Assembly (NCBI GenBank): GCA_016929855.1
Contig: JAFGHY010000005.1
Coordinates: 1-32,846 of the forward strand
Length of the DNA: 32,846 bases
Source: Candidatus Woesearchaeota archaeon
Lineage (GTDB): Archaea; Nanobdellota; Nanobdellia; Woesearchaeales; JAHJEM01
Reading direction: 5' to 3'
Shown here: piece by piece, positions 3,141 through 25,473 of the stretch
How the letters are laid out: the number at the start of each line of letters is the position of its first letter
Numbering within the stretch: position 1 is the first letter of the stretch
The notes under the pieces: model-generated
What the model saw: the letters and a program-made list of their open reading frames with translations, nothing else
The model's database searches: none
What the model was told of the DNA's origin: nothing
Made by a program: the position numbers and the translations under genes

Positions 3141-3761
3141 ATGGTAAATATATTTACTCTTCTTAAAAGGCTGTTCAGAGGCAGAAAGAATCTCAAGCTG
3201 GGGCTTTACGGACCTCCTAATGGCGGTAAGACTACTTTGGCCAATAAAATCTGTGTGGATTGGATTGGCGAGGAGATGGGTGCTACCAGCAACATTGCTC
3301 ACGAGACACGTGAAGTGCAGATGAAGGAGTCTGTAATCATCAAGAGTAAGGGCAAGGAGCTTGTCTTCAACCTTGTGGACACTCCAGGCATAGCCACCAA
3401 GATTGACTATGAGGATTTCATCAAGCTTGGCATGAAGGAGAAGGAAGCTAAAACAAGGGCTAAGGAGGCTACAAAAGGTGTTATTGATGCCATTAAGTGG
3501 CTGGATGACATGGATGCTGTTGTGATTGTCCTGGATGCAACTAAAGACCCTTACAGTCAAGTCAACATTACTATCATTGGAAATCTGGAAGCTCGTAAGA
3601 TTCCTGTTTTGATTGTTGGGAACAAGATTGACTTGAAGAAGGCAGACCTCAAGAAGGTGCAGGCTGCGTTCCCGCAGTACAAGGTCATAGGCATTAGTGC
3701 CAAGATGGGCAAGAACATGGAAGACTTTTATGAAGCATTGTTTGAGGTGACTGACAAATGA
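3141..3761 (+). CDS. oapA: Era-like GTP-binding protein (archaeal OapA family)
   Basis: G1 GPPNGGKT, G3 DTPG, G4 NKID, G5 SA; HETR and ATKGVIDAIKWLD motifs; coupled to a DUF2073 gene. TATA TTTATATA at 3109-3116. Confidence 0.88.
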   Translation: MVNIFTLLKRLFRGRKNLKLGLYGPPNGGKTTLANKICVDWIGEEMGATSNIAHETREVQMKESVIIKSKGKELVFNLVDTPGIATKIDYEDFIKLGMKEKEAKTRAKEATKGVIDAIKWLDDMDAVVIVLDATKDPYSQVNITIIGNLEARKIPVLIVGNKIDLKKADLKKVQAAFPQYKVIGISAKMGKNMEDFYEALFEVTDK

Positions 3762-4150
3762 GCTTGACCTTGCAGTTCATACCTTACATTGAGATTGAGG
3801 ACTTGGACTCTGAGAAGAGGATTACTAAGTTGCTTAAGATTGTAAAAGCAAACAAGATTATTCTTTTGGAGGGTCGGCTTAAGGGCAATGAGGAGACAGA
3901 GCTCATCCGCCGTACAATGGAAGAGATTGATGACAAATTCAAAGGCATAGAACTTAGTGTCATATTTCCTGACAAGAAGGACGAGGCTTTGTTCAGGAAA
4001 CTGAAATCAATGCTCATCCAGGCTTTGATGGGCGACAGGAAAGGCTTCACAATCATCGGGCCTGCAACAATCGTTAAGGAAATCAAGCAGGATCCTGACA
4101 AGATACAATTGTTCACTGAGGACCTGAAGATTCCTAGGAAGAAGAGATAA
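3758..4150 (+). CDS. oapB: DUF2073 family protein (OapB)
   Basis: IILLEGRL...EETELIRRTMEEID..FKGIE and GFTIIGPATIVKEIK.DP motifs; ATGA overlap with the GTPase. Confidence 0.85.
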   Translation: MSLTLQFIPYIEIEDLDSEKRITKLLKIVKANKIILLEGRLKGNEETELIRRTMEEIDDKFKGIELSVIFPDKKDEALFRKLKSMLIQALMGDRKGFTIIGPATIVKEIKQDPDKIQLFTEDLKIPRKKR

Positions 4151-4320: not shown

Positions 4321-4400
4321 TCAAATTCATTTCATGCGTGATTAAACTGAACCAACAACCTTTCGAAACCCTTATAAATCAGTTTTTCACCTCTTTTAGA

Positions 4401-4787
4401 ATGCCACACCAGTGCGTCAATTGCGGGACTTTGTACCAGGACGGTAGCAGTGAGATTCTCAAGGGCTGTTCCTGCGGCTGCAAGCTTTTCTTCTACATAA
4501 AGAAGGACAAACTGGCAGAGAATGAGAGGCCTTTCATCCTTACTAAGGAGCAGAAGCAGCAGATCGAGGAGGACGTGTATGACATCATTGGCGGGGAGAT
4601 TGACAGGGAAAAGCCTGTTGTACTGGATATTGAGAGTATCAACATCCTGAAGCCCGGCAAGTATGAGCTGGACCTGGTTAATCTGTTCAAGAAGAAACAG
4701 CCTTTGATTTACAAGCTGGATGATGGCAAGTACGTCATCGATATTATTGAGACGTTCAAGAAAGCCGGCGCAAAGGAAGCCAAGTGA
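4401..4787 (+). CDS. oapC: Zn-ribbon protein (DUF2072 / OapC family)
   Basis: MPHQCVNCG...ILKGCSCGCKLFFY and ESINILKPGKYELDL motifs. Start moved to 4401, behind a TATA box at 4370-4378. Confidence 0.85.
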   Translation: MPHQCVNCGTLYQDGSSEILKGCSCGCKLFFYIKKDKLAENERPFILTKEQKQQIEEDVYDIIGGEIDREKPVVLDIESINILKPGKYELDLVNLFKKKQPLIYKLDDGKYVIDIIETFKKAGAKEAK

Positions 4788-4793
4788 TTTCTA

Positions 4794-5564
4794 ATGATGC
4801 TAGTTGACTGCCACGCGCACCTGGATTTCGAGGAGTTCGAGAAAGACTTTCCAGGTTTTATCAGACGCCAGGAAGAATCCGGAGTCAAGGCGATCATCGC
4901 AAACGGAGTTAATCCTGAGAGTAACAAGAAAGTCCTCGTCCTGGCAGAACAATACAAGATTATCAAGCCAGCACTTGGAGCTTACCCTACTGACATGTTG
5001 AAGCTGAACTCTCAAGAATATCCTGGTGCCTTGAAATTCATAGAGAAGAACAAGGACAAAATTGTCGCGATTGGAGAGGTTGGATTAGATTTTTCTGAAC
5101 AAACTTCTGACAATGACATCAACAAATCAATACAAATATTCAGAGACATACTACGACTAGTAAAAAAGATTGGCAAACCAGTGATAATACACTCGCGCAA
5201 AGCCGAAGAGAAAGTCTTTGAAATCCTTGAGCATGAACGAATGGATGAAACAAAGAAGGTAGTATTGCATTGTTTTTGCGGAAAGAAGAAGCTCGTTCGG
5301 CTCGGCAAGGAGAGAGGCTATTACTTCACCGTTCCCACAAATATCGGGCGCAACCAGCAGACGCGAATGATTGCTGAAATCATTCCTCTGTCTCACGTGC
5401 TGACAGAAACTGACAGCCCATACCTGCATCCTGACAAGACAAAGTTCCCTAATGAGCCAAGAAATGTTGCCGTGACCATCAAGGAGCTTGCCATTATCAA
5501 GAAAATGGACGCTGAAGAAGTGTCGCAGAATGTGTTCATGAATTATCAGAGACTGTTTCTTTAA
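4794..5564 (+). CDS. tatD: TatD family deoxyribonuclease
   Basis: DCHAHLD, IGEVGLD, IHSRKAE, LHCF, ETDSPY, NEP motifs. Confidence 0.95.
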   Translation: MMLVDCHAHLDFEEFEKDFPGFIRRQEESGVKAIIANGVNPESNKKVLVLAEQYKIIKPALGAYPTDMLKLNSQEYPGALKFIEKNKDKIVAIGEVGLDFSEQTSDNDINKSIQIFRDILRLVKKIGKPVIIHSRKAEEKVFEILEHERMDETKKVVLHCFCGKKKLVRLGKERGYYFTVPTNIGRNQQTRMIAEIIPLSHVLTETDSPYLHPDKTKFPNEPRNVAVTIKELAIIKKMDAEEVSQNVFMNYQRLFL

Positions 5565-5619
5565 TTCGCCAATACCTTTAAATATTAGGCTTTTCAGAGA
5601 GTAATTCAGGTGTGGTATT

Positions 5620-5868
5620 ATGGAGATAAAGATTGACACGAGCAAGGATTCCAAAGATGACATTAGAAAAATGATAAGATTCCTTCAGCAGTTCATTAAG
5701 GTGCCTGAAAACTCCGGTGGTGCTGTAGAGCAAGAGCCCGAACTTAGTGCTGGCGTGTTCAGCATGTTCAATGACAAGCCAAGCAGTAGCAACTCTGCAC
5801 CCGACCCGTTTGAAACCAGTCAGGAAAATAAAGAAGATGACAGACCGCCCAAGATAGAATTTTTTTAA
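5620..5868 (+). CDS. Small hypothetical protein
   Basis: 82-aa ORF with AGGTG SD and an upstream TTTAAATA box; MEIKIDTSKDSKDDIRKMIRFL N-terminus and acidic disordered tail. Confidence 0.7.
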   Translation: MEIKIDTSKDSKDDIRKMIRFLQQFIKVPENSGGAVEQEPELSAGVFSMFNDKPSSSNSAPDPFETSQENKEDDRPPKIEFF

Positions 5869-5900
5869 GTATCAGCTAATAGTATTCAGTTAGAGGAAAG

Positions 5901-6389
5901 GTGAGCATGAATCCGTTAGAAGTTGAGATTGATGAGATAAAGAGGGACATCAAGTCTATCAAGCACGAGGTTGTTGAACACCTGCCGCCTCATTTTTCTG
6001 TGGTGGAGATGCTCAAGGCAGGCTTTGGTGCAATGTTTATCGGACTGACTTTCATGTTCAAAGACCTGCTCATTGAAGTTGGATTGAACCTTCCCGTGTA
6101 TAATGTCTTTCTTATTGTGGCATCGACCATACTCATACTCTCTGCTGAAATATATTATATTGGTTATGCTAAGGTGAAGAACAAGAGAGAACGTCCATTT
6201 GCTCAGTTCTACTTCAAGAGGCTGTTGACTCTGTATGGCATCTCTTTTATTGTATCATTTTACCTATGCTATATTTTTGGTTTCCTTCCCTTGGCCCAGA
6301 CATTCACTGGTTTCTTGAACCTGGTGCTGGTTCTCACAATGCCTTGTTCATTGGGCGCTGCAGTCAGTTTCATGTTCAAGAAAGACTGA
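5901..6389 (+). CDS. Membrane protein, DUF2391-like (about 4 TM)
   Basis: Four hydrophobic segments; resemblance to DUF2391 is from memory only. Confidence 0.6.
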   Translation: MSMNPLEVEIDEIKRDIKSIKHEVVEHLPPHFSVVEMLKAGFGAMFIGLTFMFKDLLIEVGLNLPVYNVFLIVASTILILSAEIYYIGYAKVKNKRERPFAQFYFKRLLTLYGISFIVSFYLCYIFGFLPLAQTFTGFLNLVLVLTMPCSLGAAVSFMFKKD

Positions 6390-6443
6390 ACACTGTGGAT
6401 TTCACACAATAACATTTAAAAGCCTTCTGGAGTCCCTAAGCCT

Positions 6444-6884
6444 ATGGAAAAGAGATTCAAATACCTAGAGCACACTGCAGACTCCAAATTCCAGGCTTTT
6501 GGAAAAACATTGGAGGAAGCCTTCGGCAACGCTGCCTTGGCTATGTTCAATGAAATTGTTGATATTAATACTGTCAGATGTGATGTGCAAAAAAGTATCG
6601 AAGTCATTGCAAAGAAAAAGACAACATTGCTTTACGAATTCCTCGAGAATCTGTTGTACCTTCTTGACACTGAAGGTTTTTTGCTCGGAAAAATATTATC
6701 GATCAGCATCAAATCGGACGAAGTGGAAGACCGGAGCCTGTCCTTGAATGCTGTCATTGCAGGAGACTCTGCAAGTGGGGGTTATGAAGTCATTGGAGCA
6801 ATAAAGTCAGTGACCTACTCTGATATGATTATTGATGAAAAGCACGAGAAAGGCGTGATGGTGCAGGTCTTGATAGATATTTGA
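6444..6884 (+). CDS. Archease
   Basis: FKYLEHTAD, GKTLEEAFGNAALAMF, IKSVTY and C-terminal IDI motifs; adjacent to rtcB. Confidence 0.95.
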   Translation: MEKRFKYLEHTADSKFQAFGKTLEEAFGNAALAMFNEIVDINTVRCDVQKSIEVIAKKKTTLLYEFLENLLYLLDTEGFLLGKILSISIKSDEVEDRSLSLNAVIAGDSASGGYEVIGAIKSVTYSDMIIDEKHEKGVMVQVLIDI

Positions 6885-6906
6885 ATTGAACTGTAGGGAC
6901 AATAAA

Positions 6907-8352
6907 ATGGCACAAATCCAAGTTGATAAGATTGAGAATGATGTTTTTGAAGTCAAGAAGCACGGGAACATGAACGTACCTTTGCGTATCTTTGCCAGTG
7001 AAAAACTTCTGAAGAAGATGCAGGAGGATTCAAGCATCCAGCAGGGCGTCAATGTTGCAGGAATGCCCGGCATCCAGAAGTATTCCATAATGCTCAGTGA
7101 CGCTCATATCGGCTATGGCTTCAGTATTGGAGGGGTGGCTGCTTTTGACAGTGAAACAGGCTGCATTACTCCTGGAGGTATTGGTTTTGACATAAACTGC
7201 GGTGTCCGTCTCCTGACGACGAACTTGACTGAAAAGCAGGTTAGACCGAAGCTCAAGCAGCTTTTGGATGTGCTTTTCAGGAATATTCCTCCTGGTGTGG
7301 GGGGAGAGAGCCTGTTCAAGCTTTCAGATGAGGAGTTGGATGATGTTCTCACGAACGGGATGAAGTGGGCTTTGAAGAAAGGTTATGCAAGGCAGAAGGA
7401 CCTTGATCATTGCGAAGAGAAAGGCACCATGCCAGGAGCAGATTCTCGCAAGGTAAGCCCAAGAGCCAAATCAAGAGGAAGAAAGCAATTGGGGACTTTG
7501 GGTGCCGGAAATCATTTTCTTGAAGTTCAGACTGTAGGGCAGATAATAAACAAGCAGGCTGCAGATAAGATGGGCATCACCAGGCAAGGACAGGTGTTGG
7601 TAATGATACACACTGGTTCCAGGGGTTTGGGCCATCAGGTCTGCAGTGATTATCTTAGGCGTATGGAGGATACTTATCCTGAGATAATGGAGAAGCTTCC
7701 TGAAAAGGACCTTATTTACGCGCCGATCAAGTCTGAGCTTGGCAAAGACTATTATGGTGCGATGTGCGCTGCAGCGAATTTTGCCTGGACAAACAGGCAG
7801 ATAATAACTCATCAGATCAGGAAAAGTTTCCACGAAGTTTTCGGCGAGTTCTGCACCCCCGAAGATATTGGAATGGTCTATGATGTCGCCCACAATATTG
7901 CAAAGCTGGAAGAGCACGATGTTTCAGGCAAGATGAAAAAGGTTTACACTCACAGAAAAGGCGCTACTCGCGCGTTCCCTCCAGGTCATCCTGCAATCCC
8001 TGAAGATTACAAGGATATCGGACAACCCGTGATGATTCCTGGAAGCATGGGAACTGCAAGTTACATCCTGGTCGGCACGCAGAAAGCCATGAAATTGACG
8101 TTCGGCAGTTCTGTTCACGGTGCAGGAAGAGTAATGAGCAGGATGAAAGCCAAGCAGGAATTTCGGGGTGAGGATGTTAAACAGGAGCTTGAGAAGCGTG
8201 ATATTCTTATCAAGGCTGCAACGATGAAGGGCATCAGTGAAGAGGCACCGAAAGTTTACAAGGATGTGGATGAAGTCGTCAAAGTCAGCCATGATCTTGG
8301 CATAAGCAGGCTTGTCGCAAAACTGCTTCCTATTGGCGTTGTAAAAGGATAG
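6907..8352 (+). CDS. rtcB: RtcB 3'-phosphate/5'-OH RNA ligase (tRNA-splicing ligase)
   Basis: DAHIGYGFSIGGV, GFDINCGVR, LGTLGAGNHFLE, HTGSRGLG, HNIAK, HRKGATRA, PGSMG, HGAGR, EEAP..YKDV, terminal VKG. Start set at ATG 6907. Confidence 0.97.
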   Translation: MAQIQVDKIENDVFEVKKHGNMNVPLRIFASEKLLKKMQEDSSIQQGVNVAGMPGIQKYSIMLSDAHIGYGFSIGGVAAFDSETGCITPGGIGFDINCGVRLLTTNLTEKQVRPKLKQLLDVLFRNIPPGVGGESLFKLSDEELDDVLTNGMKWALKKGYARQKDLDHCEEKGTMPGADSRKVSPRAKSRGRKQLGTLGAGNHFLEVQTVGQIINKQAADKMGITRQGQVLVMIHTGSRGLGHQVCSDYLRRMEDTYPEIMEKLPEKDLIYAPIKSELGKDYYGAMCAAANFAWTNRQIITHQIRKSFHEVFGEFCTPEDIGMVYDVAHNIAKLEEHDVSGKMKKVYTHRKGATRAFPPGHPAIPEDYKDIGQPVMIPGSMGTASYILVGTQKAMKLTFGSSVHGAGRVMSRMKAKQEFRGEDVKQELEKRDILIKAATMKGISEEAPKVYKDVDEVVKVSHDLGISRLVAKLLPIGVVKG

Positions 8353-12413: not shown

Positions 12414-12629
12414 GTCTGACAGGATAAATTTGCAGAATAAAAAACTAACGGAATGATTTTTGAGAGAAAACCGGTTTTTCTGCAGAACCACAACCTTTAT
12501 AAAAAACCTCTTAACGCAATAAGAAAGTGTGATTTTTGTGTTAGTATATTGGTATTATATGCACAAAATATGCATAAAAACAGCATTTTAGAGAGTTACG
12601 TTGACAGAGCACTTATGACAGGTGAGAAA

Positions 12630-13373
12630 TTGAGAAAAATTGCTATTATCAATCAGAAGGGCGGTGTTGGTAAGACCACGACAACGATCAACCTGGCTGC
12701 AGGGCTTGCAAAAAGGGATTTCAAGGTCCTTATACTTGACTTGGACCCTCAGGGCAACATTTCAACCAGCCTTTGCGTGAAATCAGAAAAGAACATGTAT
12801 CATATTCTTGTGGACGATGTTAATCCTAAAGAGTGCATAGTGAATGTTCAGGAGAACATTGATGTGATCACTTCTGACCAGAGCCTTGAGAAGGCTGAGA
12901 TGATTCTTGCTGGCGAGACTTCCAGGGAGACTGTTCTGAGGCGGGTCATGGATGGCGTCAACAATTACGATTTTGTGATATTGGACTGTCCGCCTAGCTT
13001 GGGCCTGCTGAACCAGAACGCACTGCTTTATGCCCGAGAGGCTTTCATCCCTGCAAGCACGGACTTTCTGGGTATTAATGCTTTGAAAAAGATGCAAATT
13101 GCTATTGAGGCGTTAAACGATATTTTCAACCACAAGATATTCATCAGCGCAGTCATACCCACAATGTATGACCGGAGGAACAAGACTTGCATTGAACACT
13201 ACAATGAACTGCAGAGAGGCTACAGCGACGTTCTCACAAATCCCATAAGGGTCAACAGCAAGTTGAAGGAAGCGCCGTCTCAAGGAAAATCAATTTTTGA
13301 TTACGCGAACAGCAGCCGTGGTGCAAAGGATTATGAGAAGCTTGTGGAGATAATCATAGATGAGGGTGAGTAG
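12630..13373 (+). CDS. parA: ParA/Soj family ATPase
   Basis: Deviant Walker A NQKGGVGKTTT, DLDPQGN, DCPPSLG, PTMYD, L.EAPS.GK. Likely TTG start at 12630 behind AGGTGA (alternative ATG 12615). Confidence 0.93.
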   Translation: MRKIAIINQKGGVGKTTTTINLAAGLAKRDFKVLILDLDPQGNISTSLCVKSEKNMYHILVDDVNPKECIVNVQENIDVITSDQSLEKAEMILAGETSRETVLRRVMDGVNNYDFVILDCPPSLGLLNQNALLYAREAFIPASTDFLGINALKKMQIAIEALNDIFNHKIFISAVIPTMYDRRNKTCIEHYNELQRGYSDVLTNPIRVNSKLKEAPSQGKSIFDYANSSRGAKDYEKLVEIIIDEGE

Positions 13374-14367
13374 TTGAGTTTTCCAGCTCTTTTCTAGCGG
13401 CTTCGTATACTCTCATGTTGTAAAGCTCGTTTTCAACATCCCTGACAAACGCGTCCTGTTTTGCTTTGACTAGAGAGTCAAGTGTATTCTGGAGCTCCGC
13501 CTCCACCGTGCTTCTTGAGATTTTTTTGCCGAGCCTTTCTTGGAGCTTGAGTGACGTGGCAACACGGTTGATGTCCCTTGCAGACAGCATTCTGTATTCG
13601 GTGCCTGACAATTGGTCCATGAGAGCCTGTTCCTCTAGATAATCCTTGACTTTTGTGCCTTCCAGCTGGTGTGACAGCAGCTGCACGAATTGTTCAGGTG
13701 TTACAGGTCCTTTCCAGAATACAGGTCTGCATCTGGAGAGCACTGCATGGTCGAACTTTTCTATGTAGTTCGTGGTGAAGATACACGCGTAATTACCTCG
13801 ATAGTCCGGAGGCTGCATTCCATGGAGTGCTGCAGTTATGACTCTGGAGTCTTCTTCATTTGACATTGCAGTCCTTCTTGAGAATACTGTGTCTGCATCA
13901 TCACCCAGTATCAAGCCAGTACCTTGCGGGTCTTTCATGTAGGAGAATATCTTTTCTAGGTTCTTTGTTGAATCGCTGTACATGTGGGTCCTGAAGCCAT
14001 TGTCTAGCCAGATTACCCGCGAGTCTGCTCTGCGGTTCCTGATATAATCTTCTGCTGCAGACAATATCATGGTCTTGCCTCCTCCTGGAGGCCCGTATAC
14101 CACAATGTTTGGAGGGTTCGCGTAACGATCCAGGATTGGATTGGTCTGCGCTTGAGGGTCGTACTGAAGTAGTGTGTCACAAACTTCCTGAATCTTAAGC
14201 AACTGGGCGTGCGATCCAATGATGTTCTTGAACTCTTTAGGTACTTTGTCTTTCAGAGCAACCGCTGAAGTGGTTCTTGCAGTTGTTCCCTTAGTGATTC
14301 CTGCAGTCATGTGTACAGGATCTTGCTCAGTGCCCTGATTAGAGTGCATTTGTTGGGATGCTTCCAA
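13354..14367 (-). CDS. Divergent classic-clade AAA ATPase
   Basis: Walker A GPPGGGKT, pore-loop region THMYSDSTKNLEKIF, Walker B LILGDD, second region of homology TTN..EKFDHAVLSR; AGGTGA SD overlapping the upstream stop. Confidence 0.85.
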   Translation of the reverse strand: MEASQQMHSNQGTEQDPVHMTAGITKGTTARTTSAVALKDKVPKEFKNIIGSHAQLLKIQEVCDTLLQYDPQAQTNPILDRYANPPNIVVYGPPGGGKTMILSAAEDYIRNRRADSRVIWLDNGFRTHMYSDSTKNLEKIFSYMKDPQGTGLILGDDADTVFSRRTAMSNEEDSRVITAALHGMQPPDYRGNYACIFTTNYIEKFDHAVLSRCRPVFWKGPVTPEQFVQLLSHQLEGTKVKDYLEEQALMDQLSGTEYRMLSARDINRVATSLKLQERLGKKISRSTVEAELQNTLDSLVKAKQDAFVRDVENELYNMRVYEAARKELENSTTHPHL

Positions 14368-14377
14368 TCATATCACC

Positions 14378-15613
14378 TTAGTGCATGCCATCGCGCTCGT
14401 CCCATGACTTCTTGATTCTGGCCAATCTTTCTTTTGCCTGGGCAAAAGTGTCCTTGCCTTTGAATTGCTCTGCCTGTTTTGAGCTTTCGTCAGCTACCTG
14501 CTGTGCTATGGAATCGTACGTCAGACTTTGTCCTGCTATCCTCTGCTTTTTTCCTTCGATGACTTCAGAGAGGTTTGATATTATTCCTGCATAGTCTACT
14601 GTAGTTCCTCCGACTGCCTGCCTCAATTGTTCAAGAGTTGAGATTGAGTTGTTTGTTGATTCATGGACTTCTATGAGGTTGTAGAGGAATCTTGCGTCTG
14701 ACACTTGTGTCGTGACTGCCTGTATATCCTGCATCATTGATTTTTCTATGGCTTCAAGCGCCACAAGACCCCTGTCATTCACTGCTACGCTGTTCACTGC
14801 TTCTGTCATCTGGAGTTCAAGCTGGTGTTTCCTGTCTTCAAGCTCTTGCCTTTGGTCTGAGAGTTTTGGAAGCATAAAATTCTTTGACGGATCGTCTTTT
14901 ATCTGCCTCATGTCATGCTCGTACGCCTGGATTCTTGCCAGTGTCTGCTGGTACTCATCGTCTATAAGGTCTGTTGCAGCAAACGCAGTGGCTCTTTGGT
15001 TCCTGTAATCCCTTATTTTGTTTCTCAATTTTGTGAGCTCCCTGTTTTCTGATTTCAGGTAGTCATCTGTCGCGTGCATGATTGTGCTTATTCCTTCTTT
15101 GTAATTGTTTATCACCGTGTGTTCAAGGTCGATTTCAAGCTCTTCAGCATGCCTGCTCTCGAGAGCCTGCAAGATGGGGTTTCTCAAGCCGGCAACCCTT
15201 GCAAGATTATAAGCAATCTTTTCTGAGGTGCTGGTGTGCACTACATTAACTGGAATGTTTACTGGCCGATCAGATGTTCTGCTGTCAAGGTCCAGTCTTG
15301 AAAAATCCTGGCGCGTGTAGTCTGTCATCTCATAAAAGTGCTTGGACTCTGTTGTTCTGGGTGATTGAGGTGTCTTCAATGAAGCCTTTGCGAGTTGCCT
15401 GTCGAACTCTGAAAGGTCTCTAAGACCTGCAGTGTATTGTGGTGTCTGGTATGATGCATGATGTGATGCATGATGTGATGCTCGGGATGATGACTGTGCT
15501 TCTGATGCGTTCAGGATGTCTTTCAGTCTTGTGCTTTGTCCGGGTTGTTCTGGGTTCAGCTCTGTAATTCCGTTGTTTGCTTGATTGATTATTGATTCAT
15601 ATCCCTTTTCCAT
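14378..15613 (-). CDS. Long coiled-coil protein with disordered N-terminus (hypothetical)
   Basis: Heptad-like helical region from ~aa 140 to the end, no TM. Start set at ATG 15613 behind GAGGTGA. Confidence 0.8.
   Translation of the reverse strand: MEKGYESIINQANNGITELNPEQPGQSTRLKDILNASEAQSSSRASHHASHHASYQTPQYTAGLRDLSEFDRQLAKASLKTPQSPRTTESKHFYEMTDYTRQDFSRLDLDSRTSDRPVNIPVNVVHTSTSEKIAYNLARVAGLRNPILQALESRHAEELEIDLEHTVINNYKEGISTIMHATDDYLKSENRELTKLRNKIRDYRNQRATAFAATDLIDDEYQQTLARIQAYEHDMRQIKDDPSKNFMLPKLSDQRQELEDRKHQLELQMTEAVNSVAVNDRGLVALEAIEKSMMQDIQAVTTQVSDARFLYNLIEVHESTNNSISTLEQLRQAVGGTTVDYAGIISNLSEVIEGKKQRIAGQSLTYDSIAQQVADESSKQAEQFKGKDTFAQAKERLARIKKSWDERDGMH
15452..15481. repeat. 12-bp in-frame tandem repeat (2.5 copies) encoding ASHH-ASHH-AS
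   Basis: tgatgcatgatg x2 + tgatgc. Confidence 0.85.
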
Positions 15614-15926
15614 AGGATTCACCTCATACAAGCAGAAGATAAAGGATTAAATCTAGATTTCTTGGTCTTGGTCGCAAAATCAATGCTTCAAATCGAATAT
15701 TAATCCACTTCCTAGAATTATTTTTATTCTATGCAGTCATTGACAGAAAAACATCAAATAACACAAAATAATTTCGACAATATTTGCAACTTGATAAAAT
15801 ATTTTTCGGAAAAAATTTAAATTATTAAAAAAATTTCTCACAAATAAAAAAAAAATTCAATTACTGCGTTGTATTTTCAAGATTTCTTGCCAAACTCACT
15901 TTTTATTTGCTTCATATCAGTTATTC

Positions 15927-17624
15927 ATGCGACCTTCAGAAAAAGAATTACAAACACTTGAGGAAATAATCAGACTTTCTGAATCACTCAAAGCAAGCCA
16001 AAGCTCTGCCGACAACTTCAACAGCTCTTCTGCCAATGACTGGCTTCAGAACATATATTCTGCTGTACAGAATCTTGCAGGTCATTACGCACCAATCCTT
16101 GCCTTGACCAGGCCGGAAATCCTTGATGCATTGCATGTAATCCAGGAATTTGTCGTCGATATATCAACATCAGTGCTGTTCTCTGATGAAAACAGAGGAT
16201 ACAATATCAATGGAAGATACAATGTAAACAGCAGGCCGGCAGGCCGGCAGATCAGAGAATTGTCAGAGAGTATCTACAGTACTATTAGTGAATTCACAAG
16301 TCCGAGTGCGCGCCAGAGTCTGCCTAATTTCGTGCTTGATCACATGCCTTGCAATCAAAGCAAATCCAAGAGCCCAGATTATTATAATACTCTGGAGAAA
16401 GGCACGCAGGTCTCGCATAAGTCAGACAGCAGATCCAGGTTGGACTCGTGCAAGCAGGAGTTTAACAGGCAGAGAGGACATTCAGATATTCTATTAAGTC
16501 TTCGTCCTACCGCAAGCCTTGATTTGAGGAATGAAATTTCTGTGCAGCTTCAGAAGATGCTGGGCACAAGAGTGTCTGCGTACTCTCACATCCCCTATCT
16601 CAGGATTCAAGCAGGGTTAGGGGATGAACAGTCAATTTTGAGGTTGTTTAACCAAAAAAGAATTGTTTCAGATTACTTTTCTGCTGATAAGAGGGAGGTT
16701 CTTGGTAATGCAGAGACTTCTCAATTGTATTTTAGTCCTAAACCAATTTTGTCCCGGCGTGCAAGGATGAGAAAGAGCATGATGCTGTGGAATCTAAAGA
16801 ATATTGGAGTGTATGATGCTCACGCTTTCACTAGGGGTGCTGGTTCAATTGTGCTTGTGCTGGATACAGGCGCAGACTATAACCACAATGAGATCAAGCA
16901 TGCATTTGGTGATGAAAAGGGCTATAATTTTATTGCAGGAAACTCCAATCCCTTGGATGGTGATGGGCATGGAACGCACGTTTCAGGGACCATTGCGGGT
17001 ATTGATACTGGTGTCGCGCCTGAAGCTGGATTGCTGGCAGGCAAGGTTCTGTCAGACGATGGTTGGGGCAGTGAAGCAGATATTCTTGAAGGTGTGGAGT
17101 ACGGTATTGACAAGGGTGTTGACGTCATCAGCTTGAGCTTGGATGGTGAGGGTTACAGCAGGGCTAGCGAACTGGTCTTCAGGGCCGCTTACGATCAGGG
17201 CATAGTCGTTTGTGCTGCGGCAGGCAATGACCATTACGGCTTGGGAGATGATCCTTACAACTATCCTGCTAGCTATGAGGGCGTGTTGAGTATTGCTGCT
17301 GTTGACATAAACAACGAGCACGCTGACTTCAGCCAGGTTAATGACAGGGTTGACATCAGTGCGCCTGGAGTCAATATTAGGAGTTGTCTGCCTGGAAACA
17401 GGTACGCGGATTACTCCGGGACTAGTATGGCAACGCCTCATGTAAGCGGCGTGATGGCTCTTGCGAGGTCTCTTGATTCTGGATTGGGTAATTGTGACTT
17501 GGAGCAGATGCTCTTGTACACGTGCAAGGACATCGGTGATTCGGCAAATATGTTCGGTCACGGTCTGATACAAGCAGACCAATTGGTTGACCTTGTCAAG
17601 GAAGCAATGGAGGAAGTTGTATGA
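15927..17624 (+). CDS. S8 subtilisin-like serine protease with long N-terminal extension, no signal peptide
   Basis: Catalytic motifs LDTG, HGTHVSGTIAG, AAAGND (oxyanion Asn) and GTSMATPHV all intact; N-terminus hydrophilic. Confidence 0.93.
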   Translation: MRPSEKELQTLEEIIRLSESLKASQSSADNFNSSSANDWLQNIYSAVQNLAGHYAPILALTRPEILDALHVIQEFVVDISTSVLFSDENRGYNINGRYNVNSRPAGRQIRELSESIYSTISEFTSPSARQSLPNFVLDHMPCNQSKSKSPDYYNTLEKGTQVSHKSDSRSRLDSCKQEFNRQRGHSDILLSLRPTASLDLRNEISVQLQKMLGTRVSAYSHIPYLRIQAGLGDEQSILRLFNQKRIVSDYFSADKREVLGNAETSQLYFSPKPILSRRARMRKSMMLWNLKNIGVYDAHAFTRGAGSIVLVLDTGADYNHNEIKHAFGDEKGYNFIAGNSNPLDGDGHGTHVSGTIAGIDTGVAPEAGLLAGKVLSDDGWGSEADILEGVEYGIDKGVDVISLSLDGEGYSRASELVFRAAYDQGIVVCAAAGNDHYGLGDDPYNYPASYEGVLSIAAVDINNEHADFSQVNDRVDISAPGVNIRSCLPGNRYADYSGTSMATPHVSGVMALARSLDSGLGNCDLEQMLLYTCKDIGDSANMFGHGLIQADQLVDLVKEAMEEVV

Positions 17625-17965
17625 ACAAAAAAAATGTGGACGAACAAAATATGGAAGCAGGCAAAGGTAGTAGTACAAGCAGTGATGAAAGCGCAGGGAA
17701 TCTAGAAACATACATTATAGAATATCAAGGGGATATACTGGAACAGATTAAAGTGCATCTTCAGAATGCTGGATTGGTTGAAGTGCACAAGCGAGAAAAA
17801 GCAGTACACCCGCACTATGTATGCTTTGACTATGCTAACCTTGTTGTTGCGAGAATTCAAGGTGTTGAGCAGTCTTCAATGCTTGAGAAACTGGCTAAGG
17901 AATACAGATCTTCCGAGCATGAACGGGTCAGGGTTTATATTCCCAAAGAATTTAGGAAAATGTGA
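17621..17965 (+). CDS. Small protein resembling a subtilisin propeptide / I9 inhibitor fold
   Basis: ATGA overlap with the protease and GGAGG SD at 17609-17613; YIIEY...FDYANLVVARI...LEKLAKE...VRVYIP pattern recalls I9 (by eye). Confidence 0.55.
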   Translation: MNKKNVDEQNMEAGKGSSTSSDESAGNLETYIIEYQGDILEQIKVHLQNAGLVEVHKREKAVHPHYVCFDYANLVVARIQGVEQSSMLEKLAKEYRSSEHERVRVYIPKEFRKM

Positions 17966-18159: not shown

Positions 18160-18948
18160 TTAGTCTATGATATTTTCAGAGTCGATATTTTCAGTGTCTA
18201 TGATGTTCGTGCTTGTTACTTTCCATCCGTCTATCATAACTTCATATCTTTTTGTCTCATCAACAGACCACTTCTCCAGACTGACTTGCCAGCATCCTGG
18301 GCAGAATGCAGCAATAACTTCCACAACTGTCATGCCATACTCTGCACCAACAGAATTTACAGCCATTTCTGCTGCCTGAAGCTCCTCTGTGTTCAGCTCC
18401 CATGCTCTCACGCAAGCTTGTGCATCTTCATTCCATGTGTAGCCTGCAGGTCCAAGGCATCCGTGCTCGTCGCGCTGGCCTCCTATCAACCCGTTGTCAA
18501 GCGCATTATCATCCTGCTCAACAGTCTCATTGACTGCCTCTACAAAGGATCTGCCGTCTGGAGTGGTACATTGTCTTGGATAGGATTCCATGACAGGATA
18601 TCCTGCTTCCTCACATTCGACGAAGCTGTCAACGTTTTCTGAAGCCCAGACTTTCTTGTTTGTGCATTTGTTGTCAAGACACATGCAGTCTTCTGCACTG
18701 TAGGCTGCCAGCGCCTCGTACTGCAATGTGCAAGCCAGGGCAGGATTAGGTTGTTTGATTGATTCCTTATTGACGCAATTCTGTGGATGGCAAACAGGTT
18801 CAGGAACGCAGTCAGAGTCTTTTTCGCAGTATGAAGCGTCAGCATTTATTTCAGTTACCTTGCATCCTGTCAGCAAAACTGATGCAAAAACAGAAGCTAT
18901 CACAAGCATTAAAGTCCATTTTTTTGTTGTTGTTTTCATCGTTACCAT
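18160..18948 (-). CDS. Putative lipoprotein with several small Cys-rich (disulfide) domains
   Basis: Lipobox-like LLTGC; modules CEKDSDCVP..CHP..CVN, SFVECEEAGYPVMESYPRQC, IGGQRDEHGCLGPAGYTW. Confidence 0.8.
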   Translation of the reverse strand: MVTMKTTTKKWTLMLVIASVFASVLLTGCKVTEINADASYCEKDSDCVPEPVCHPQNCVNKESIKQPNPALACTLQYEALAAYSAEDCMCLDNKCTNKKVWASENVDSFVECEEAGYPVMESYPRQCTTPDGRSFVEAVNETVEQDDNALDNGLIGGQRDEHGCLGPAGYTWNEDAQACVRAWELNTEELQAAEMAVNSVGAEYGMTVVEVIAAFCPGCWQVSLEKWSVDETKRYEVMIDGWKVTSTNIIDTENIDSENIID

Positions 18949-20540: not shown

Positions 20541-21103
20541 TTATATCTTACCTACCATGTCCATTCCTGGCTTAAGGGTCGTCCCCCCTTTCTTCCAGCT
20601 GGCAGGGCATACTTCTCCTTTATGGTCTCGGACGAACTGGGCTGCTTCTATCTTCCTTAGAAGCTCATCTGCACTCCTGCCTATGCTGTTGTCGTGCACT
20701 TCGTAGGCTTTCAGGATGCCTTCAGGGTCTATTATGAACGTCCCTCGCAGGCTCAATCCTGCGTCGTATATGTACGTCTGGTAGTCCTTTGAAATCTGTC
20801 CTGTCGGGTCTGCCAGCATCGGAAACTTGATTTTCTTGATTGTTGGAGAGTTGTCCCACCATGCCTTGTGCACGAATTCTGTGTCTGTGCTTACACTCAT
20901 GATCTCAACCCCTAGTTTCTGGAATTCCTGGTACTTGTCCGCCAACTCTCCGAGCTCTGTGGGCACACGAATGTGAAGTCTGCAGGGTAGAAGAAGAGCA
21001 CTACCCACTTTCCTTTGTAGTCTTCAAGACTGATTGTCTTGAATTCATTGTTGTGGAACGCTTTTGTTACAAACTGCGGTGCTTTTTCGTTTATGCATAT
21101 CAT
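20541..21103 (-). pseudogene. ahpC: 2-Cys peroxiredoxin (AhpC) split by a 1-nt deletion at ~20961
   Basis: [12 protein letters not shown] in one frame; TELGEL...RGTFIIDP...GR...EVCPASW in the other; GGAGGT SD before ATG 21103. Confidence 0.9.
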
Positions 21104-23279: not shown

Positions 23280-24488
23280 TCAATTCATGCTTTTGCTCAA
23301 TTCATACTCTTCCAACACTAGCGCATCAATCCTGTCCAAATCCTTGACACCATAGAACCTGCCATTACCTATATCGACTATCTGCCTACCGAGCTTCTCA
23401 CCTTCCTCGTCCAAACTAATCCCCAACATACTGACTGTTATGCCTTCTTCGCGAGCCCTACCGACTGCCTGCAGGGTTGCTTTTTTAGGCTTCTGTCCTT
23501 TTGTAGGCATGGCATCAGTGATTATGACGAGATGTTTTGTCTCTCTTGTGCCGGGGAACACTTCAATTGCCTTGTCTATAGCTTTGCTTATGTCCGTCTC
23601 CTGACCCGCACGAATCTTGGCGAGCTCCTCAAGAATGAGCGGGAAGTCTTTGGTAGGCGGGATGACGCTCTTTACTTCGCTGTCGAACACTATCAGTCCT
23701 GATTTGTTCTTGTCGGTTATTGCTTTGAATGCGAGGGCAATTCCTGCACGTTTTGACATGCTGATCTTCTGGCCTTTCATGCTGCCGCTGCTGTCCATCG
23801 CAAATATGACGCTTATGCTTCCCTTGCTTTCCCTCGTGACAGCTATTAAATCATCTTTCTCCACACTCTTGTGGTTGCGCTTGATGCCTCGCCGAATGCT
23901 TTGCCTCACGCTCACGTCCCTGTATCTGTGGTTCTTGAAAAGCTCGTAGTCTTTCTTGTCGCCATAATGTGTCTGTTTGTGCTCCTTGCGCTCCCCGAAA
24001 CCCTTTGGGACTATCTTCTCTATCTCTTCTACGTACATGATCAGCTCGCAGAGTTTGTAGCCTTTGCGCGTTATACGCCCGTACTTGTCTAGGTACTTGT
24101 TCTCCTGCAGGGATTTTATGCGCTGGCCAATCCTGTCCTTCAATTCTCTTTGAAATTCTGGGATGTTTATGTTCCTTTCAACATAGCCTGGCTCGTATCC
24201 TGTCAGCTCTCTGATGATGCTCTGACCCATTATGCGCTCTGCATTCTTGTAGTCCTGGACGAGCTGTTCGAACATCAGGTCTGGCGTGAAACTGCCTAGG
24301 CCTTGACTGATGCTTTCAGTTATCAGCTTGCCGTCGTCGACTTTGTCCTTGTCGCCTTCCAGCACGCTCTTCATGAGCTTGTCATCCTCGTCGCTCTGCC
24401 CCAGGCTTCCAGAAAGCTCTTCTATGGGACTTGCTCTTTCAATGCTTATGGGCTTGTCCTCAGAAGGGCTGTCACCCGGCACCGGCAC
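23280..24488 (-). CDS. vWA-domain protein (ChlD/MoxR-partner type)
   Basis: MIDAS DSSGSM, TDI, ITDA; overlaps the upstream AAA gene by 17 nt. Confidence 0.9.
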   Translation of the reverse strand: MPVPGDSPSEDKPISIERASPIEELSGSLGQSDEDDKLMKSVLEGDKDKVDDGKLITESISQGLGSFTPDLMFEQLVQDYKNAERIMGQSIIRELTGYEPGYVERNINIPEFQRELKDRIGQRIKSLQENKYLDKYGRITRKGYKLCELIMYVEEIEKIVPKGFGERKEHKQTHYGDKKDYELFKNHRYRDVSVRQSIRRGIKRNHKSVEKDDLIAVTRESKGSISVIFAMDSSGSMKGQKISMSKRAGIALAFKAITDKNKSGLIVFDSEVKSVIPPTKDFPLILEELAKIRAGQETDISKAIDKAIEVFPGTRETKHLVIITDAMPTKGQKPKKATLQAVGRAREEGITVSMLGISLDEEGEKLGRQIVDIGNGRFYGVKDLDRIDALVLEEYELSKSMN

Positions 24489-25473
24489 GTTTGCCGGTAT
24501 AAGTTTCCAAGTGTTCTTGAAGATAAGATTCGTTGGTCTGAAGGTATTTCACACTGGGTTTGAGCTTTATCCTGTGGGCGAGTACGCTAAGGAGCACTGC
24601 TGATACGTCATCCCAGTCTGCATGTTCTTTGCCGCAGAGTTTTGCATGACTTTGTGCTCTCTCAAAAAGACCCAGGCTTGCGCGTACGCTTGGCTTCTTT
24701 TCAAGATTCTGGTCATTCCTTAATTGGCGTATGAAATCCACGATGTCATGCGCGAGCGTGTCTTCTGTGGGATAGAACTTGTTTGCTTTGGTGTCAACAA
24801 TCTTTTCCTCGTCTTCCTGTGTTTCTGGGTAATTCACATAGATGAGGTCGAACCTGTCCAATAGCACATCGCTCAGTGGTTCTGTGCTGTTGTCATTAGG
24901 GTTCATTGTCGCGACAAAGATAAAATCCGCATCCAGGTCAACAGTGTAGCTTCCTATTGTGACTTTCTTCTCCTCTAGGGCTTGCAGAAGGGCATTCTGG
25001 AGCTTTTCGCTGCACCTGTTGATCTCGTCAAAGAAAAGTATGCCTTGGTTGGCCTTGAAAATCTTGCCAGGCGTGAAGGCTGTTATGCTCATCGGTCCAT
25101 ACTGCATCGCTTTTATCGGGTCTATGTCTCCCAATAGGTCTTCTGCTGTAAGATCAGGACTTCCCTGGATTCTCACAAACAATTCCTGGCCAGTGTATTG
25201 CTTAGTCGGGGTTGGTTTGCCTGCCTTCATGTTATCTTGACATACTGGGCACATGGGCCTGTCTGGCGTGCAGTGGTAAGGGCAGTTGTTGAGGGCCTTG
25301 GCTGGCAGAAGCTTTGCTATGTTCTTTGCAAGTGTTGTCTTTCCCATGCCTGGCTGTCCTACAAGGATTATGTGCCTTCCCATCAATAGGGCTGATTTTG
25401 CTTGTTTCTTGACTTCTTCCAGACCTATTATGTCTGAAAAGTCATTCTGTAGAAGGTTCTGTTCGAATGTCAT
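24472..25473 (-). CDS. AAA+ ATPase, ChlI/MoxR-like, with a Cys cluster
   Basis: Walker A GQPGMGKT, CPYHC...CPVC, QGSPDLTAEDLLG, Walker B ILFFDEINR, LLQALEE, LLDRF. Confidence 0.9.
   Translation of the reverse strand: MTFEQNLLQNDFSDIIGLEEVKKQAKSALLMGRHIILVGQPGMGKTTLAKNIAKLLPAKALNNCPYHCTPDRPMCPVCQDNMKAGKPTPTKQYTGQELFVRIQGSPDLTAEDLLGDIDPIKAMQYGPMSITAFTPGKIFKANQGILFFDEINRCSEKLQNALLQALEEKKVTIGSYTVDLDADFIFVATMNPNDNSTEPLSDVLLDRFDLIYVNYPETQEDEEKIVDTKANKFYPTEDTLAHDIVDFIRQLRNDQNLEKKPSVRASLGLFERAQSHAKLCGKEHADWDDVSAVLLSVLAHRIKLKPSVKYLQTNESYLQEHLETYTGKRAGAG

Follow-up and report, generated by a model that had tools for sequence, protein, structure and literature searches.

The stretch of DNA considered here, hereafter the window, is a single whole contig of 32.8 kb (JAFGHY010000005.1, 32,846 nucleotides (nt)), which belongs to a 0.91-Mb, 80% complete assembly of a Candidatus Woesearchaeota archaeon (GCA_016929855.1). 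It carries four genes arranged as two divergent pairs: a coiled-coil protein followed by an AAA ATPase on the minus strand, and an S8-family subtilase followed by a small protein on the plus strand. The reading proposed here is that these are two lineage-specific and chromosomally inherited pairs, one coupling the S8 protease to a trans inhibitor and the other coupling the coiled-coil protein to the ATPase, which probably cooperate in ATP-controlled proteolysis because they recur together in three families; the chances that this reading holds as a whole are put at about even.

The four open reading frames (ORFs) and the two tight junctions with Shine-Dalgarno motifs lie in the sequence as the initial annotation had described them, and the AT-rich divergent spacer, which it had put at about 310 nt, was measured as well (Table 1). 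At the minus-strand junction the coiled-coil gene ends in TAA and the ATPase gene begins with TTG; an in-frame ATG follows 18 nt past the TTG, and the database gene call starts there. At the plus-strand junction GGAGGA lies 8 nt ahead of the overlap between the stop of the protease gene and the start of the small gene. The promoters of both pairs presumably sit in the divergent spacer; the promoter and terminator scan used bacterial-type consensus patterns and is uninformative for an archaeon. No transmembrane segment or classical signal peptide is apparent in the four proteins by hydropathy, with no dedicated signal-peptide predictor applied, the maximum Kyte-Doolittle value over 19 residues being 1.26; this is consistent with the earlier statement that none is present, and the protease is likely to reside in the cytoplasm. 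The 411-amino-acid (aa) coiled-coil protein and the 114-aa small protein have no match in Pfam, PADLOC, NCBIfam or PHROGs, and PHROGs returned for the cluster just generic AAA and protease families.

Table 1. Features of the four-gene cluster and of the origin-associated genes in the window (positions in nt from the first letter of the contig)
Feature	Position	Strand	Remarks
AAA ATPase, divergent classical-clade	13354-14367	-	337 aa from TTG; 331 aa from ATG at 14349; PF00004 3e-14
Spacer, 10 nt, GGTGAT (Shine-Dalgarno-like)	14368-14377	-	between coiled-coil stop and AAA TTG start
Coiled-coil protein, 411 aa	14378-15613	-	ATG behind GAGGTG; TTG start given by the ORF lister at 15631
Divergent intergenic region, 313 nt, 26% GC (contig 43%)	15614-15926	.	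one TTTAAA at 15816
S8 protease gene, 565 aa	15927-17624	+	
S8 N-terminal extension, residues 1-189	15927-16493	+	in the alignment, not conserved among relatives
S8 segment before the catalytic domain, residues ~190-285	16494-16781	+	conserved block in the 21-sequence alignment
S8 catalytic domain, residues 286-565	16782-17624	+	PF00082 2e-48 over residues 304-546
Small partner, 114 aa	17621-17965	+	ATGA overlap; no sequence family
Orc1/Cdc6, OapB, OapC (origin-associated)	595-1650, 3758-4150, 4338-4787	+	

The protease is a well-marked member of S8, with 165.5 bits against PF00082 (cut-off 21.8). The catalytic triad D313/H348/S500 and the oxyanion residue N434 are invariant across 21 aligned sequences and intact in the window protein. 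A full HMMER search over 1.84 billion representatives recovered many relatives at 36-53% identity, among which the best single-domain ones align only from about residue 150-210 onwards and are likewise without an N-terminal hydrophobic segment. For the N-terminal extension, phmmer found no relative among the fetched loci. The conserved block that follows it (residues ~190-285) may be an internal propeptide-like segment of the order beta-alpha-beta-beta-alpha-beta, judging from its alternating hydrophobic strands and amphipathic helices; compared with the profile of the small partners by hhalign, it reached only E 0.03. A type VII secretion mycosin was rejected as an identity (NCBIfam TIGR03921, 149.3 bits against a cut-off of 278.75).

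The S8 family (E<=1e-54; 384-663 aa, without an N-terminal hydrophobic segment) is present in 81 of 401 sampled genomes of the order, the window included, which is about a fifth of a single sample of one order in which fragmented assemblies hide gene distances. Flanks of about 7 kb on each side were taken for 79 other loci (a first set of 40 and a second of 39), leaving out one genome flagged as unpublished (G339). The neighbours of the S8 pair in these relatives include GatB, aspartyl-tRNA synthetase, an AlaX-like protein, an Mre11-like phosphoesterase with HerA, an MFS transporter and RFC. A scan of genome contigs with the S8 alignment gave only generic catalytic-domain relatives from bacteria and archaea, at identities of 43% or below, and these were not used further.

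Coupling to a small gene is a conserved property of this protease. Counted by eye, 34 of the 40 first-set loci and 32 of the 39 second-set loci have a co-oriented small ORF at the S8 stop. The same was found under a uniform rule, in which an ORF of 55-160 aa on the same strand had to start between -30 and +60 nt from the stop with at least 400 nt of contig downstream, and in which the other genes of at least 300 aa in the same loci served as controls: 58 of 76 S8 genes have such an ORF against 50 of 288 controls, and it falls within 10 nt of the stop on either side in 36 of the 76 against 21 of the 288. A hidden Markov model (HMM) was built from 33 of these partners; it picks up 28 of the 33 again, along with nine more in the independent second set, and therefore the partners, at least in large part, appear by sequence to form one homologous family. 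The small protein of the window is placed among them by position, size and coupling, not by sequence. A near-length homologue search found only the protein itself, an iterative HMM failed to reach the positional analogues, and the ESM Atlas gave no usable match.

The ATPase of the second pair scores 54 bits against PF00004 (cut-off 21.2), and its best solved relatives are the VAT/Cdc48 D1 domains (E 5e-13). Its motifs are intact and stay within the variation seen in its subfamily; they comprise Walker A GPPGGGKT, a Walker B with DD, sensor-1 TTN and a second region of homology LSRCR, in which the Arg is present. Walker B reads DE, DD or ED within this subfamily, DD being shared by nine other members. 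The pore loop reads RTHMYSD in the window; most members have K-x-x-aromatic-aromatic-G-E/K, and several others also replace the Gly. PAN, CdvC, Cdc48 and IteA were rejected as identities, the respective NCBIfam scores lying far under their cut-offs. A near-length search returned one weak match (29% identity, E 2.6e-5) and was nearly empty because the true relatives are longer (467-661 aa, E 1e-25 to 1e-13). For example, G004 and G002, two genomes of the window's own family, encode proteins of 659 and 641 aa that match the ATPase at 1e-25 and 3e-21, respectively.

An order-wide profile search brought out a graded AAA subfamily, with ORFs mostly of 300-700 aa scoring 70-135 bits against about 60 for Cdc48, and twenty of its loci were taken with their flanks. 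In a quick tree the window ATPase falls within the 23-member subfamily with a Shimodaira-Hasegawa-like approximate likelihood ratio test (SH-aLRT) value of 92. The relatives carry an N-domain of about 180-260 aa, found in all subfamily members; the window ATPase is without it and has merely about 45 disordered-looking residues before the AAA module. The N-domain HMM found nothing in the window or in the rest of the assembly (G000), where a weak match proved to be a membrane protein. The 'AAA' genes beside S8 at loci L133 and L150 were set aside as RFC large subunits outside the subfamily, and a 759-aa match at L195 was taken as Cdc48-like by length alone.

In relatives the ATPase seems to belong to a more extensive conserved cluster of unknown genes, only two of which remain in the window. 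The ATPase is often followed by a family of about 510-550 aa without a Pfam or NCBIfam match (loci within L152-L171 and others, e.g. L163:4136-5737 (-), L147:4004-5668 (+) and L162:4177-5703 (-)) and then by a protein of about 590-670 aa, and proteins of about 130-170 aa often stand two genes upstream. At one locus (L158, G140:C2) the N-domain occurs in tandem, as a free-standing 243-aa ORF at 4532-5263 and as an AAA-fused copy at 5269-7095 (+).

A co-oriented gene lies upstream of the ATPase in all 22 loci, encoding a protein of 243-649 aa (mostly 320-430 aa), and in relatives these proteins have a high E/K/R/Q content and no transmembrane segment. The coiled-coil protein and the ATPase thus constitute a second conserved pair, and both tight pairings exceed chance because they recur, the one at the S8 stop and the other upstream of the ATPase. 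The upstream proteins fall into small sequence groups that could not be joined to each other or to the window protein. The latter is a singleton in a near-length search among 5.8 billion clusters, was not found in 40 relatives, and in the ESM Atlas met only unnamed clusters at 0.87-0.89. The coiled-coil protein and the small protein of the window evolve fast, as is the case for their positional analogues in all lineages examined.

The AlphaFold2 (AF2) single-sequence model of the coiled-coil protein has a predicted local distance difference test (pLDDT) value of 59.5. It shows a disordered N-terminus (1-155), a long helical hairpin of two ~80-residue helices (156-239 and 242-319, pLDDT 75-96) and two C-terminal helices, which bears out the coiled-coil description given to the gene at first. 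Foldseek returned for this model generic long coiled coils only, such as Smc arms, chemoreceptors and several Vipp1/PspA filaments, none of them at E<=1e-3.

The N-domain profile of the ATPase was found in 50 of the 401 genomes, and 24 of these also hold the S8 family, compared with 57 of the 351 genomes without the N-domain; genomes flagged as unpublished account for two of the 50 and for one of the 24, and related genomes in these counts are not independent. In five of the 24 genomes that hold both, the pairs lie no more than 10 kb apart, and these five represent three families (f1, f95 and f65 in the numbering of the search, the window itself belonging to f1 and adding a further case). The arrangements differ among the families. 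In G002 and G004 (f1) the genes stand on one strand in the order of a ~400-aa protein, the ATPase, a 554- or 670-aa protein, S8 and the small protein. In G100 and G369 (f95) they form an operon, mostly with 4-nt overlaps, of a 208/212-aa protein, a 134/146-aa protein, a coiled-coil-like protein of 342/331 aa, an ATPase of 464/469 aa (PF00004 1e-27 to 1e-31), S8 and a small protein of 83/73 aa; the N-domains of these two ATPases matched the subfamily model at 2.5e-11 and 1.7e-5 before both joined that model. In G070 (f65) the coiled-coil/AAA and S8/small pairs lie 8.6 kb apart in a same-strand gene string. The first two proteins of the f95 operon (L113:10570-11597 (-) and L117:3110-4185 (+)) have N-terminal hydrophobic segments and may tether the module to the membrane.

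The expectation that both pairs would be found together beyond the window is thereby borne out, and the functional link that the initial annotation had left open gains some tie, an ATPase of the same kind lying within 10 kb of S8 in five other genomes and once in a tight operon type, though not an obligatory one. Its term 'four-gene system' goes too far, as the pairs stand apart in most genomes that hold both. The association is recurrent but facultative, and the explanation that suits it best is functional cooperation for which co-transcription is not needed.

Several points weigh against such cooperation. Of the 24 genomes with both, 19 keep the pairs separate, namely by 418 kb and 116 kb in two near-complete genomes and on different contigs in the other 17, and an ATPase of this kind lies near S8 in none of the 39 second-set loci. 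The ATPase domains of G100 and G369 group weakly (80) with Cdc48 and not with the subfamily in the quick tree. The window ATPase, having no N-domain, may be a decaying or re-purposed copy. Moreover, the coiled-coil protein has no demonstrable homology with its positional analogues, the best comparison being E 0.03 over 152 collinear residues with the G004 protein.

Chance juxtaposition is a serious rival, even if a somewhat unlikely one. It holds that two unrelated modules became neighbours by an accident of rearrangement, the protease and its inhibitor forming a self-contained unit, and the coiled-coil protein and ATPase being employed elsewhere, for example in the remodelling of helical polymers as by ESCRT-III/Vps4 or PspA. 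Besides the separation of the pairs in most genomes, the conserved company of most AAA loci speaks for it, which is the ~540-aa family and the ~150-aa proteins and not S8. Against accident, the juxtaposition is repeated in three families and in three arrangements, operons with 4-nt overlaps included, and the S8 family is about three times commoner in genomes with the AAA N-domain. Polymer remodelling itself draws on the Vipp1/PspA chains among the weak matches of the coiled-coil protein and on CdvC, which is among the best NCBIfam matches of the ATPase and the top one for one relative. This likeness is weak: the Vipp1/PspA matches (Foldseek E 0.01-0.08, template modelling score at most 0.27) come from a low-confidence model, no Snf7 or PspA Pfam match was obtained for the coiled-coil protein, and as a Vps4/CdvC protein the ATPase was rejected at 31.6 bits against the 650 of NF041006 and with no MIT domain, whose N-terminal presence is a feature of Vps4/CdvC. 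The ESCRT-III-like reading of the coiled-coil protein is only a lead.

For the proposal of a protease held by its own inhibitor and served by an ATPase pair, the nature of the small protein is of importance. Its AF2 model has a mean pLDDT of 78, rising to about 90 over residues 28-106, which are predicted to fold into a ferredoxin-like core with the elements E28-35, H40-49, E65-69, E74-80, H82-96 and E103-106, i.e. the beta-alpha-beta-beta-alpha-beta order of subtilisin propeptides. Residues 1-27 are disordered, and the C-terminal tail (108-114) is predicted to lie in the cleft of the protease. Foldseek found no match for the model in the PDB at E<=1e-3. VIA-align places it level with many domains of ferredoxin-like fold (Z 6.5-8.2), among them RRM, PII-like and ACT domains and designed proteins, and some prodomains share this rank: those of procarboxypeptidases (1jqg_A, residues 4P-84P, Z 7.5; 7eqx_B, Z 7.2) and the lanthipeptide subtilase prodomain chain 4zoq_A (Z 6.9, root-mean-square deviation 1.9 over 60 residues). 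Searches by fold do not set propeptides apart from the rest.

Complex prediction, which the initial annotation had suggested for each pair, was run for this one pair, with the S8 catalytic domain (285-565), the small protein and custom alignments as input, and it passed. The interaction prediction score from aligned errors (ipSAE) was 0.86/0.77/0.85 against 0.00 in all three controls, the pLDDT of the partner was at least 73 and at least 75% of the contacts agreed between runs; the pass mark is attained by 58 of 80 solved complexes and by two of 110 mismatched pairs, counts that hold only roughly for such inputs. On the side of the protease the predicted interface includes 313-314, 348-349, 433-434 and 498-500 (the triad and the oxyanion Asn) together with 379-395 and 404-424, and on the side of the partner 30-34, 57-60, 67-76, 104 and the tail. 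The predicted pose is that of a propeptide or an I9 inhibitor, with the sheet laid on two surface helices and the tail in the substrate cleft. Partner tails often read hydrophobic-x-x-E-P/K-x, which resembles the C-terminus of a propeptide. The conserved translational coupling, the predicted fold and the predicted dock together support, by prediction, the small protein as an inhibitor-like partner of S8, as the label 'putative inhibitor' first attached to it had proposed.

Some considerations tell against this assignment. The partner HMM misses the window protein, which by hhalign reaches E 0.12 at the equivalent first strand and helix. The alignment behind the AF2 model was made from positional partners that are possibly not all homologous and could impose their own fold. 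Ferredoxin-like folds are very common, and PII, RRM and ACT domains rank equal to or above prodomains by Foldseek and VIA-align. No sequence signal of Pfam I9 (PF05922) was found in the window protein (E<=0.01), in the 33 positional partners (E<=1), or in the S8 pre-domain of the 21 aligned members. The complex score may itself come from likeness to solved subtilisin-propeptide structures retained in the memory of the model; the pass indicates that the model treats the small protein as propeptide-like, not that the protein inhibits.

In another explanation the small protein either serves the protease as a dedicated substrate or is a regulatory or adaptor subunit, such as an ACT/PII-like ligand sensor or an RRM-like binder. 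For it speak the highest-ranking structural ties, which are with PII-like, RRM and ACT domains (Z 7.8-8.2), the absence of an I9 signal, and the propeptide-like segment that S8 already appears to have of its own. The predicted pose speaks against it, since it has the tail entering the cleft and the sheet resting on the helices beside the triad, as in propeptides; a role other than inhibition is considered distinctly unlikely.

In the reading proposed here, the small protein would bind over the S8 active site like a propeptide or an I9 inhibitor, with its tail in the cleft, and would act as a trans inhibitor and/or a folding chaperone that keeps the cytoplasmic protease silent. The ATPase would be the presumed remodeller or unfoldase of the fast-evolving helical-hairpin coiled-coil protein, and might deliver substrates or the coiled-coil protein to S8, or remove the inhibitor. 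A more specific form of this idea, which is judged unlikely, is a hitherto unrecognised ATP-gated cytoplasmic protease system of DPANN-type archaea. Here a hairpin scaffold and a dedicated AAA unfoldase would control a subtilase that is latent under a propeptide-like inhibitor; the unfoldase would extract or unfold the inhibitor or hand over scaffold-bound substrates, and the window would hold a stripped-down form without the N-domain. If true, cells with reduced genomes would gain a route of regulated proteolysis besides the proteasome.

The genomic setting of the cluster is chromosomal. The contig probably carries a replication origin, having Orc1/Cdc6 together with OapB and OapC, and the window is an origin-proximal chromosomal stretch without mobile-element genes. 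The housekeeping genes that share it also include TatD, archease, RtcB and Sua5, as well as Ogg, a DNA-alkylation repair enzyme, superoxide dismutase, Fur, a MoxR/VWA pair, the CCA-adding enzyme and a DUF7266 pilin-like protein. Among the window genes there was no sign of an integrase, a transposase or a viral hallmark gene, no tRNA was found within the window, and no Rfam family was found anywhere in it, the divergent spacer included. Relatives of the same order have genomes of 0.6-2.7 Mb and are spread across more than 130 families; such small genomes fit a DPANN-type lineage.

Several neighbours merit mention in their own right. A ParA/MinD-type ATPase (12453-13373 (+); AAA_31 1e-48, NCBIfam ParA_partition 2e-27 and under cut-off) converges on the AAA gene with a 20-nt overlap of the ORF ends, and no ParB-like gene was noted adjoining it. 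Immediately 3' of the small-partner gene, on the opposite strand, lies the gene of a Cys-rich 262-aa protein (18160-18948 (-)) with an N-terminal hydrophobic segment followed by a lipobox-like 'LLTGC' and no Pfam family. The MoxR-type AAA gene (AAA_3/AAA_5) overlaps the VWA-domain gene at 23280-25473 (-) as a classic MoxR-VWA pair that is unrelated to the four-gene cluster. The peroxiredoxin ORF at 20541-21008 (-) has an AhpC-TSA match that begins only at profile position 42; the gene may have lost its 5' end, or its true start may lie upstream of the listed GTG.

IetA/IetS is an AAA ATPase and S8 protease system of toxin-antitoxin and anti-phage type, a co-oriented, adjacent two-gene unit of mobile or defence loci. 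The cluster resembles it in the genetic association of an AAA ATPase with S8 and in weak profile matches, and differs from it in scores under the family thresholds, two extra components, a facultative association, another arrangement and a housekeeping context. An IetAS-like system, with a toxic S8 under the control of the ATPase and set free upon infection, could appeal to that combination of genes, to the fast evolution of two components, to weak PADLOC matches (IetA 1.6e-5, TRIP13 2e-6, IetS 3.2e-5 over 80 residues, a generic 'subtilase' 2e-23) and to NCBIfam IteA at E 0.0014, yet it is highly unlikely, given that IteA (NF042959) reaches 17.8 bits against a cut-off of 510, that the PADLOC IetS match amounts to 20.1 bits over residues 307-386 of 565 only (the DTG region), that the two pairs point away from each other and the coiled-coil gene separates the ATPase from S8, that housekeeping genes and no integrase or transposase surround the cluster in the window and S8 in relatives, and that the S8 pair is found in about a fifth of the order's genomes and the GC content of the four genes is 44.5% against 42.9% for the contig. 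PADLOC gave only weak matches for the cluster, with IetA and IetS far under threshold, no sign of a mobile defence island was seen, and the defence or abortive-infection function envisaged at first is not supported.

The cluster may be compared with other known systems as well. The yeast PBI2 is a propeptide-like trans inhibitor of I9 type. A Plasmodium SUB1 propeptide-like protein is described as a separately encoded inhibitor of a subtilase, and serves as a precedent (PMC6993865). With such inhibitors the cluster shares a small separate protein of propeptide-like fold, which the prediction places over the active site of its cognate subtilase; unlike them, its small protein is outside I9 by sequence, is archaeal, is coupled to the protease gene and is paired with it across an order, and its protease appears also to keep an internal propeptide-like segment. 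The intracellular subtilisin ISP1 of Bacillus is checked by IPI, an inhibitor that is reported to have an Ig-like all-beta fold (PMC3901451). The likeness here lies in an intracellular subtilase under a separate small inhibitor, which for the cluster is a prediction; the small partner models as ferredoxin-like whereas IPI is Ig-like, and the genes are unrelated. The ATPase shares PF00004, Walker A/B, sensor 1 and the position of the pore loop with Cdc48/VAT, PAN and Vps4/CdvC, and departs from them in its single AAA module, in the N-domain peculiar to its relatives (absent in the window) and in its DD/ED/DE Walker B.

No description of this cluster was found in the literature, in a search with most subscription journals outside it, and passages on S8 peptidases in PMC8561730 deal with extracellular ones only. 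None of the curated families of Pfam and NCBIfam names any accessory protein, and no family of Pfam, NCBIfam, PADLOC or PHROGs above threshold accounts for the cluster, so that its description as undescribed stands. What is known in kind is a protease with a propeptide-like trans inhibitor; what is new is an archaeal pair of this sort that is optionally joined to an AAA/coiled-coil pair.

The cluster does not look like a defence system and should for this reason not be counted as one. Two groups of rapidly evolving 'hypothetical' genes are widespread in these genomes, and the positional families delineated here are a first way into them. Subtilases without a signal peptide are a danger inside the cell, and the means by which archaea keep them in check are poorly understood. 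A protease with a propeptide-like partner, conserved across an archaeal order of small genomes, would represent a simple and testable inhibitor system, and its repeated, optional joining in operons with the coiled-coil/AAA pair suggests that activation may involve an ATP-dependent step, which has no described counterpart.

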